Source: Escherichia coli
GTDB lineage: Bacteria > Pseudomonadota > Gammaproteobacteria > Enterobacterales > Enterobacteriaceae
Reading direction: 5' to 3' (one strand)
Assembly: GCF_013122565.1 (NCBI RefSeq)
Contig: NZ_CP053258.1
DNA: 64,000 nt
The stretch's first letter is position 1; each line of letters starts with the position of its first letter. Position numbers and translations under genes: made by a program. This document shows, piece after piece, positions 43,193-44,535 of this stretch. Under the pieces are notes generated by a model. It worked only from the letters and a program-made list of their open reading frames with translations. It searched no databases and was not told the DNA's origin.

Positions 43193-44038
43193 CTATACTG
43201 CCAGCATGTCAGGATAGTGTTTTGCGATAATATCATTCAGTCTGTCAACCAGTTCTGGCTTCCTGAACGTGATGTGCGCAGAGCCCTTCTTAAAGTATTT
43301 AATAATGAACATCTCATCTTCATAGCATTCTTTTCCCTGAAGAGACCGGATGTGATCGTCCAGATGAATAGTTATGTTTTCCCTGTTGTCGGGGATCGGT
43401 TTGCCGCTGAACAGATGCAGCATTCTTTCCAGGTCGGCAAGTCTATCTGCCTGTTGCCCGGTGATAAGATGCAATCCCCACCGGTCCCACCTCACCAGAT
43501 TGTTGACGATAATTTTATTGCCAAATTTACAGGGGCAATTGGTTTTGTAATTCCAGCTCAACCCTCTGAAGAGGTTGATCACTCCTCGCTCAAACACTTC
43601 ATCCTTATTCTGGTGTAGCTGCTCAAACGTACTCAGAATATTCTCTTCACTGATTTCCGGAAAATTATCGTACTCCAGTGATCGGTACCATGTATCACGG
43701 GCCTGTGCATCCATTAAGGAAAGCATCCCGGAGCATTGCATCAGGTCACGCCAGATTTCGCGATCGAGATTGCGGGTGATAGCTTTCATTGCTGTATCAG
43801 GTTTATCCATGAGCCAGCAGCCGCAGCGAAAATCCTGTTTCATGGCCCAGTCCAGTGCGGTTTTACCGCCAATACTTTCTGTCATTGCTGATATTTCAGT
43901 CAGTTGCCGGATAAGTGTGTCGATTTGCAGCAGTGTAGTCTTTCGCACAGCCAGAATGTGGCTGACTGAGGTGGAGCAGATAATGTCCGTATGTCCGTTG
44001 ACCACTTCCAGGCGGGAGATTGTGATATCTGACATCAT
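43193..44038 (-). CDS. Island hypothetical protein (281 aa), tRNA-proximal end of CP4-like module
   Basis: Intact ORF MMSDITISRLEVVNGHTDIICSTSVSHILAVRK...; follows YeeW-like gene in same orientation; family not identifiable by eye. Confidence 0.6.
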   Translation of the reverse strand: MMSDITISRLEVVNGHTDIICSTSVSHILAVRKTTLLQIDTLIRQLTEISAMTESIGGKTALDWAMKQDFRCGCWLMDKPDTAMKAITRNLDREIWRDLMQCSGMLSLMDAQARDTWYRSLEYDNFPEISEENILSTFEQLHQNKDEVFERGVINLFRGLSWNYKTNCPCKFGNKIIVNNLVRWDRWGLHLITGQQADRLADLERMLHLFSGKPIPDNRENITIHLDDHIRSLQGKECYEDEMFIIKYFKKGSAHITFRKPELVDRLNDIIAKHYPDMLAV

Positions 44039-44079
44039 CGTTTTTCCTTTTGGTTTATAAACGAAAACGCCAGCCCTGT

Positions 44080-44535
44080 TCAGGCTGACGTCATTGGAAT
44101 GAGACTGACGCCATAACGTCGGATGAGTGTGACAACCAGACGGCGGAACGTTTTTGACAGGCCCAGGCGTTTAAGCCGCAGAACCGGGTATGACCACGCA
44201 TCGGTACGTAACAGATATCCGCTGCCTGTAAAATGAATCCATTCTGATTCGCCGGTGTCATTCGTCTGATGCGACAGCGAGTACAGCCAGGCGTTGTCTT
44301 TTGCCGTGATATGCGCGGTACTGCAGCGTATGCCGGTCAGGGCAGCAAATGGTGGCGTGCAGTCTGTTGAGGCTCGGTCAGATTCATCAACAACACGAAG
44401 GGAGTGACCGTTATCGCAGACCACGTTAATCAGTTCAGCAAGCTCAATACCATCGACGTCAACGACAATGCGCCCCATGTTCAGTGCCTGTACGTTAACG
44501 CTGTCGGCTTCCAGCGTCAGGGCCAGTTTCATCAT
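44080..44535 (-). CDS. YeeW-like hypothetical protein (151 aa), downstream of CbtA-like toxin
   Basis: ORF MMKLALTLEADSVNVQALNMGRIVVDVDGIELAELINVVCDNGHSL...; ATG overlaps toxin stop by 4 nt; position matches yeeW relative to yeeV in CP4-44. Confidence 0.6.
   Translation of the reverse strand: MMKLALTLEADSVNVQALNMGRIVVDVDGIELAELINVVCDNGHSLRVVDESDRASTDCTPPFAALTGIRCSTAHITAKDNAWLYSLSHQTNDTGESEWIHFTGSGYLLRTDAWSYPVLRLKRLGLSKTFRRLVVTLIRRYGVSLIPMTSA

Follow-up and report, generated by a model that had tools for sequence, protein, structure and literature searches.

Genes of the YeeW type are known from CP4-44, Aec77 and L0008 and, as orf54, from the SRL pathogenicity island (PAI) of Shigella flexneri. 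The proteins they encode have both domains of the DUF5983 family and are coupled to the toxin gene cbtA, and in a survey of toxin-antitoxin (TA) systems DUF5983 was always found downstream of CbtA (PMC10790755). The SRL island has its integrase gene as orf1 and a DUF4942 gene as orf56, close to the end of the numbered list of open reading frames (ORFs) (PMC6980539). Both families also occur in the leading regions of plasmids, in which the DUF4942 proteins YdiA and YgfB constitute the enriched families 24 and 76 in Supplementary Table 1 of Samuel et al. 2024 (PMC11541004), and DUF5983 constitutes family 72, with 618 members, a median position of 2 and a location on the T-strand. The median positions of the DUF4942 and DUF5983 families are 1-2 from the transfer origin (oriT); on plasmids, families 3 (DUF932/YubP/YafZ), 9 (KlcA) and 2 (DUF905/YkfF) correspond to other genes of the CP4 module (PMC11541004). 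In the literature, we found no experiment on the DUF4942 or DUF5983 family, and no papers on ydiA in leading regions. Here we describe the two ORFs nearest to the tRNA gene serX in a 64,000 nt stretch of the Escherichia coli chromosome (RefSeq assembly GCF_013122565.1, contig NZ_CP053258.1), referred to in its entirety as the window. One, of 281 amino acids (aa), is a DUF4942 protein, and the other, of 151 aa, is a member of the DUF5983 family.

Both genes seem to be establishment or anti-defence accessories of a module resembling a plasmid leading region, rather than recombination functions, a reading to which we assign a probability of roughly 0.55. It is favoured because the plasmid members of both families are oriT-proximal leading-region genes, and hence among the first to enter a recipient. 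The role itself, and each molecular mechanism suggested below, we infer from context: the identity and anatomy of the two genes, their conservation and the selection acting on them, the boundaries of the island, the plasmid and phage settings of their relatives, and domain fusions.

The two ORFs lie on the minus strand where a first-pass annotation, made from the sequence alone, had placed them, and their family matches rule out chance reading frames. That annotation had proposed testing the 281-aa ORF for DUF4942; the corresponding profile, PF13708, matches residues 88-277 over its full length (positions 1-190 of 190) with E=1.8e-70 and 237 bits, against a cut-off of 25. The ORF is 100% identical to WP_005020348.1, a RefSeq 'DUF4942 domain-containing protein'. 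Amongst nine copies of the gene, the start codon that is kept is the second ATG (GAT[G/T/A]ATGTCA), as annotated by RefSeq, hence the protein is 280 aa long. It aligns end to end with 69 cluster representatives, and its length and N-terminal extension are typical of the stand-alone members of the family (255-300 aa); seven columns of this alignment are invariant, including W96, D202, H255 and N268. An AlphaFold2 model of the protein (predicted local distance difference test, pLDDT, 89.9; predicted template modelling score, pTM, 0.83) combines a long helix at the N-terminus with a helical bundle and an alpha/beta unit at the C-terminus, and comparison with solved structures revealed no meaningful neighbour. 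When compared with BFVD, the only significant matches were three phage proteins: the best, of 531 aa, comes from a virus and bears the name 'Type I restriction enzyme', whilst one of the others has no name in the tables used and the third is uncharacterised. Neither ORF has a match in PADLOC or NCBIfam.

Upstream of these ORFs, on the same strand, are genes for CbtA, CbeA, DUF987 (yeeT), a RadC/JAB protein (yeeS), a KlcA-type antirestriction protein and DUF932, which together represent a classic CP4-type module. Seven further annotated E. coli loci, situated at serX, adjacent to kps genes, to setC/yicL or to cadC, and at further sites, have the invariant order DUF932, antirestriction, JAB, DUF987, CbeA, CbtA, DUF5983, DUF957, DUF4942, with the last three genes intact in all seven. 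The first-pass proposal that the two ORFs close a CP4-like module and are conserved beside CbtA-like toxins therefore holds. The order of genes listed for the S. flexneri SRL PAI (orf54-56) also matches that of the module in the window.

In total, 6,605 copies of the DUF4942 gene are present in 3,777 of 5,426 complete E. coli genomes (70%), and 28 of 30 matches in a spread sample span at least 96% of the gene as one ungapped piece. Pairwise ratios of non-synonymous to synonymous substitution (dN/dS), calculated by the Nei-Gojobori method over eight copies, are 0.14 for DUF4942, 0.19-0.20 for CbtA and 0.28-0.30 for YeeW, with the lowest value of the block, 0.11, being that of DUF957. Hence the cbtA-yeeW-DUF957-DUF4942 block is under purifying selection in the sampled loci (dN/dS 0.11-0.30). 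Poor conservation or frequent disruption, either of which the first-pass annotation would have counted against a function, is seen for neither family.

Amongst 72,556 plasmids searched by tblastn, 4,865 encode a DUF4942 protein, of which 4,006 are conjugative; the identity is 33-38% across 94-99% of the protein (E 1e-44 to 1e-47). One IncI plasmid has the order ssb, DUF905, ParB, psiB, psiA, ardA, ..., DUF4942, mobC, nikA, nikB, such that of its leading-region genes DUF4942 lies nearest to the transfer origin. On a pOXA-48-like plasmid, one array situated upstream of the relaxase includes DUF4942, ssb and an antirestriction gene, and in a 105-kb plasmid DUF4942 follows psiB, psiA, mqsRA and ardA, around 6 kb upstream of an AcrVA2-like gene. 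The plasmid relatives of YeeW consist of the C-terminal DUF5983 domain only and adjoin oriT, with no CbtA annotated in the 14 kb shown: that of pKPN103_2 stands beside DUF932 and oriT-side genes, and that of pOP-I directly ahead of mobC, mobA and the relaxase gene.

YdiA and YgfB resemble the window DUF4942 in having the same full-length Pfam domain, a similar size (282-286 aa), no methyltransferase domain, and a position at the end of an array of genes in the same direction that includes antirestriction genes. The window gene differs in belonging to a chromosomal island, in being adjacent to an attachment (att) site and not to oriT, and in lying behind a CbtA/CbeA/YeeW block that is rare on plasmids. 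DUF4942 and YeeW come last in a series of like-oriented genes that stops at the island junction, and the plasmid arrays transcribed toward oriT are comparable to this series, although neither an oriT nor a relaxase gene was recognised in the island.

Two further observations were made on plasmid-borne relatives. In two plasmids that share one MOBP backbone layout, the gene immediately ahead of mobC, nikA/mobA and the relaxase is a DUF5983 gene in pOP-I (6713-7279) and a DUF4942 gene in pJNE181771-2 (8962-9810); either family may thus be able to take the first leading-region position in place of the other. In addition, a metagenomic plasmid contig (857-6434) has a 42%-identical DUF4942 gene directly after the korA-incC-korB of an IncP-like central control region, and downstream of it come a small ORF and then a gene for a C5 cytosine DNA methyltransferase.

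The 151-aa ORF is annotated by RefSeq as a 'DUF5983 family protein', and both domains of the family are matched. The N-terminal domain (PF25638, DUF5983_N) is present, at E=8.6e-32 over profile positions 1-55 of 56, but the C-terminal domain (PF19419) is incomplete, with E=1.8e-12 over positions 3-73 of 90 only. The first-pass description of this ORF as YeeW-like was thus correct as to family, but missed that the copy is truncated and that the neighbouring DUF957 gene is deleted. Identical to UTI89 YeeW over residues 1-146, the window protein then has PMTSA where the family tail, HLDASAECLPGLPTFDW, stands, such that 17 conserved final residues are lost relative to the YeeW proteins of CP4-44, Aec77, the SRL PAI and L0008. 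The tail is at least 90% conserved at most positions in an alignment with 26 family members of 162-163 aa, and is part of the domain, since distant plasmid homologues align up to residue 163.

The nature of this lesion is evident from the nearest complete genome, that of strain PapRG-06-5 (NZ_CP048605.1), which is 99.2-99.6% identical to the window over 40276-64000. A segment of it, L002, is cited here in its own numbering, with L002 1-24017 being the part that aligns with the window. By blastn, 40276-44102 corresponds to L002 1-3827 and 44097-64000 to L002 4119-24017. The difference is a 297-bp deletion, an in-frame length, that took the last 59 nt of yeeW and the whole 65-aa DUF957 gene (L002 3857-4054), which normally lies between yeeW and DUF4942. 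Of the 60 E. coli records that match best, just that of strain 100181 shows the identical contiguous junction; the other 59 retain the DUF957 segment, which is found in 4,088 of the 5,426 complete genomes. The deletion is hence a rare, lineage-specific lesion. As it removed the conserved C-terminus together with DUF957, the YeeW of the window is probably inactive. The UTI89, O157:H7 and SRL islands, by contrast, keep DUF957 and a full-length YeeW.

An AlphaFold2 model of YeeW, built on a shallow alignment of 85-98% identical sequences, is unusable (pLDDT 38.9), being too poor to check against the glyoxalase/vicinal oxygen chelate (VOC)-like fold that has been reported (bioRxiv 10.1101/2024.01.30.577995), and a profile search of the PDB with YeeW gave a best E of only 0.75. 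DUF957 has no match in the Pfam copy used. An AntiFam entry, ANF00264, which either is fused to DUF5983 or follows it closely, in every case next to cbtA/cbeA, has been argued to be a real dimeric protein (PMC13294457; bioRxiv 10.64898/2026.06.09.728211); this may be the DUF957 gene.

The start of yeeW and the stop codon of cbtA overlap by 4 nt (AAATGATGAAA) in all eight loci, the window and the seven others, which indicates translational coupling. YeeW would then be co-translated with CbtA, and probably modulates or accompanies the toxin module. In intact loci, the gap between yeeW and DUF957 is 11-16 nt. The spacer between DUF957 and DUF4942 is 84 nt long and contains a hairpin, composed of a 9-bp stem and TTTTCGTTTAT, around 30 nt ahead of the DUF4942 start; its stem is almost invariant in nine of nine diverged copies. 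This hairpin might dampen read-through out of the cbeA-cbtA-yeeW-DUF957 operon, or else make the operon transcript more stable. The cbtA overlap on one side and the hairpin on the other indicate that YeeW belongs with the toxin operon, whereas DUF4942 is set apart.

These arrangements bear on the possibility that both proteins are extra parts of the CbtA/CbeA type IV TA system, acting as a second antitoxin, a regulator or a chaperone, which we regard as unlikely. Such a role would fit the fixed order cbeA-cbtA-yeeW-DUF957-DUF4942 in the eight sampled loci, the overlap of yeeW with cbtA, the constancy of DUF5983 as the downstream partner of CbtA (PMC10790755), and the small domain next to DUF5983 that, according to the 2026 paper cited above, is always beside cbtA/cbeA. 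However, the conserved terminator-like hairpin separates DUF4942 from the operon, and the linkage of DUF4942 to cbtA is confined to chromosomal islands and absent on plasmids. CbtA was found on just 66 plasmids, against 4,865 for DUF4942, hence DUF4942 appears independent of the toxin; in phages it is fused to methyltransferases, and its plasmid contexts include ones without CbtA. The C-terminal DUF5983 domain likewise stands alone by oriT on plasmids with no CbtA gene annotated in the 14 kb shown. Furthermore, the window has lost the YeeW tail and DUF957 whilst cbtA and cbeA are intact, so at least this combination is tolerated. The functional link to the TA pair suggested in the first-pass annotation is therefore plausible for YeeW but unlikely for DUF4942.

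A connection between DUF4942 and DNA modification emerges from its more distant homologues. A search of 1.84 billion cluster representatives identified 2,104 relatives, most of which stand alone and measure 255-300 aa. A minority, at 460-470 aa, are extended at the C-terminus by a class-I methyltransferase domain, in which the motifs VLEPSAGxG and NPPF, typical of N6-adenine DNA methyltransferases, are present. Phage fusions of the same type are gp095 of Salmonella phage SSU5 (561 aa, named 'DNA modification methylase') and gp23 of Pseudomonas phage MR15 (543 aa), and phrog_6263 (PHROG 6263) bears the name 'DNA methyltransferase'. In the phage proteins and in metagenomic fusions (P0181, P0220, P0232 and P0241), the N-terminal 270 or so residues are homologous to the window DUF4942, with identities of 23-24% and 33-43% respectively, but unlike it they carry the C-terminal class-I methyltransferase domain. 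The window protein stops 4 residues past the DUF4942 domain, at the point where the catalytic domain would start in the fusions. It has no match to methyltransferase families at E<=0.01, and S-adenosylmethionine (SAM) motif I and catalytic motif IV are absent from it; nor did tblastn with four C-terminal domains detect a lost methyltransferase half in the window, the best match (E 0.13) being to an unrelated gene. The 'N-6 DNA methylase' that the pOP-I leading region encodes was considered as a counterpart and rejected, as it is unrelated to the fused methyltransferase domain.

DUF4942 may therefore be regarded, on our proposal, as a free-standing form of the N-terminal module of mobile-element N6-adenine DNA methyltransferases that lacks the catalytic half. 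Its action would most likely be non-catalytic and bear on DNA modification and restriction; it might, for instance, bind to DNA as this comes in, or to a partner protein of the methyltransferase or restriction type. A further alternative is that it serves as the specificity or targeting subunit of a methyltransferase encoded elsewhere, such that incoming DNA is methylated and escapes restriction; this we hold to be somewhat less likely still than a role for both proteins in the TA system. It would account for DUF4942 being placed N-terminally in fused N6-adenine methyltransferases, the catalytic part of which (around 185 aa) is without any other recognition domain, and would accord with the C5 methyltransferase gene two genes downstream of the 42%-identical homologue on the KorA/IncC/KorB plasmid and with the methyltransferase genes that flank DUF4942 in phage MR15. 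Against it, neither the window nor any of eight E. coli island copies has an adjacent methyltransferase gene or a remnant of one, and motifs that are invariant across 30%-identical homologues are atypical of recognition domains.

The first-pass annotation had regarded the two ORFs as standing where an integrase would be expected beside the tRNA. The E. coli chromosome in the window runs csgDEFG, ycdZ, ycdY, ycdX, ghrA, serX, and is then followed by foreign DNA. The only tRNA gene in the window is serX, 150 bp from the stop codon of the 281-aa ORF, and Rfam detected no other RNA gene in the 40-50 kb interval; the tRNA at this position is annotated as tRNA-Ser, in a like context, in five related loci (L001, L002, L003, L015 and L020). 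Identical serX-150 bp-DUF4942 junctions are present in UTI89, O157:H7 and EC20, and the UTI89 and O157:H7 islands also share the integration site and module order of the window; the cargo differs, being Ag43 in the UTI89 island and a fimbrial operon in that of the window.

The PapRG-06-5 island, of around 33 kb, extends up to ycdU and is bounded by a 14-bp direct repeat. Its attR is an exact repeat of the 3' end of serX, CCCCCTCACCGCCA, at L002 35669-35682, between an integrase pseudogene and ycdU; the repeat lies around 150 bp past the recombinase start, and a separate terminator hairpin comes next, which fits a displaced tRNA end at attR. The integrase is a tyrosine recombinase split by an insertion sequence (IS) of the IS3 type, annotated as a pseudogene (L002 33054-35519), and is the final feature ahead of ycdU. 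It lies beyond L002 24017, where the portion alignable to the window ends, and is thus outside the window. With the integrase and the repeat of the serX 3' end both at the far end, the island has the structure attL(serX)-DUF4942 ... integrase-attR, and the expectation that the two ORFs occupy the place of the integrase was mistaken. With a P4-type tyrosine integrase located by a tRNA gene, the ORFs share only the position next to the tRNA 3' end, there being no similarity of sequence or domains. As for the hairpins, a different one of terminator type follows the 14-bp repeat at each end of the island, after the tRNA in the window and before ycdU in L002; a consensus scan resolved the former into a 12-pair stem, AAGCGCATGTTA/TAACATGCGCTT, followed by TTTTATTTAT.

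It is most improbable that the genes serve island maintenance at the att site, whether through directionality, att binding or stabilisation, in place of or in support of the integrase. DUF4942 is indeed the gene nearest to the island/chromosome junction in the four serX islands checked (the window, UTI89, O157:H7 and EC20), as it is, by annotation, in the serX islands of PapRG-06-5 and 100181 and in at least the cadC-side copy. However, a family profile search found no match of either ORF to integrase (PF00589), Arm DNA-binding, excisionase or helix-turn-helix (HTH) families, the integrase is at the other end of the island, homologues are plentiful on plasmids and phages that do not insert at tRNAs, and in other islands an AbiEii/DUF6088 or EAL-domain gene comes after DUF4942.

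The island is nonetheless eroding, with yeeT frameshifted, yeeW truncated and DUF957 deleted. The yeeT (DUF987) reading frame, 45385-45666 on the minus strand, encodes 93 aa with an aberrant tail after ...AERRKDSF, the normal C-terminus, GPYVRLMSVTL, being found in another frame (ORF 45444..45650), and the gene is a RefSeq pseudogene in both of the closest genomes. The PapRG-06-5 island is annotated with IS66 remnants in addition to its IS3-split integrase. Such damage would suit the view that both ORFs are decaying remnants with no present function in the strain, which is hard to credit given that the DUF4942 gene is undamaged, encodes the same protein as a widespread RefSeq entry and is under strong purifying selection (dN/dS 0.14), although for the YeeW of the window it is probably true, and to that extent forms part of the best explanation.

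The preferred reading, in which both genes are establishment or anti-defence accessories, can thus be set out as follows. The two ORFs would be the last genes of a conserved accessory module in a CP4-type island inserted into the 3' end of serX, with the integrase at the opposite end of the island, outside the window. The module, consisting of DUF932, KlcA-type antirestriction, RadC/JAB, YeeT, CbeA, CbtA, YeeW, DUF957 and DUF4942 genes all transcribed toward the tRNA-side junction, would mirror a plasmid leading region in its content, in its uniform orientation to one end, and in the families found at that end. Several points weigh against this. There is no recognisable oriT or relaxase in the island, and when the island ends were compared with the oriT-side regions of IncI, IncL and another plasmid, only short matches at chance level were found; hence the analogy with leading regions may reflect shared ancestry only. 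The conserved W96, D202, H255 and N268 are unusual for a mere target-recognition domain, and as judged from the alignment, an enzymatic activity is conceivable. Enrichment near oriT would also be compatible with DNA processing instead of defence evasion.

Table 1. Positions of the two ORFs, their neighbours and the island boundary in the window
Feature	Position	Strand	Basis and remarks
serX, tRNA-Ser(GGA), island integration target	42956..43043	+	ARAGORN; Rfam RF00005 53.8 bits
attL core CCCCCTCACCGCCA, final 14 nt of serX	43030..43043	+	island DNA from 43044
Terminator-like hairpin and T-run, island-supplied, just past serX	43050..43088	+	consensus scan, pattern match only
DUF4942 gene	43193..44038 (281 aa); conserved start 43193..44035 (280 aa)	-	PF13708; RefSeq
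Conserved terminator-like hairpin ACGNCAGCC-N7-GGCTGGCGT and TTTTCGTTTAT, upstream of DUF4942	44066..44092	-	scan
yeeW (DUF5983), C-terminally truncated	44080..44535	-	151 aa against 162-163 in family; PF25638, PF19419
Deletion junction, 6-bp microhomology	44097..44102		blastn against L002; absent segment L002 3828-4124, 297 bp
cbtA-family toxin gene, upstream partner of yeeW	44532..44906	-	PF06755 E=7e-61
cbeA/yeeU-family antitoxin gene	44996..45364	-	PF06154 E=1.1e-52

Other features of the island were also noted. A Cys-rich 94-aa ORF (46794-47078, minus strand) overlaps the start of the DUF932 gene, and a 312-aa ORF with an N-terminal hydrophobic segment (47947-48885, minus strand) is annotated by RefSeq as a hypothetical protein in related genomes; neither has a Pfam, NCBIfam or PADLOC match. 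An HTH-WYL regulator of 235 aa (49845-50552, minus strand) is intact in the window and annotated as frameshifted in PapRG-06-5, with its gene adjoining one of a GTPase family (50767-51678). On the plus strand, 55993-62399 encodes a chaperone-usher fimbrial operon, comprising a major subunit, a PapD-like chaperone, an usher and a 382-aa tip protein, together with an AraC-type regulator. In a related genome this fimbrial cargo is flanked by IS66 remnants, and only three complete E. coli genomes have the 16-kb stretch containing it at a coverage of at least 80%.

Both ORFs belong to known, annotated families that are extremely widespread in E. coli, and what is peculiar to this locus is the rare 297-bp deletion. 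An extension of the preferred reading, which we think doubtful, is that the terminal module of CP4 islands, from DUF932 through to DUF4942, is a working leading region, with the islands being mobilisable from a transfer origin at their att-proximal end. Were this true, a recipient would receive and express DUF4942 and YeeW ahead of the other genes, and DUF4942 would represent a novel type of anti-restriction or establishment factor, non-catalytic and descended from a methyltransferase module, whose fold is as yet unseen in solved structures. The confidence of the DUF4942 model, combined with its lack of a solved relative, makes the protein a sensible target for structure determination. More generally, two of the commonest uncharacterised island genes of E. 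coli share their families with the genes at positions 1-2 in the leading regions of plasmids, in which anti-defence genes are concentrated, and this makes them reasonable candidates for screens for anti-restriction and establishment functions.

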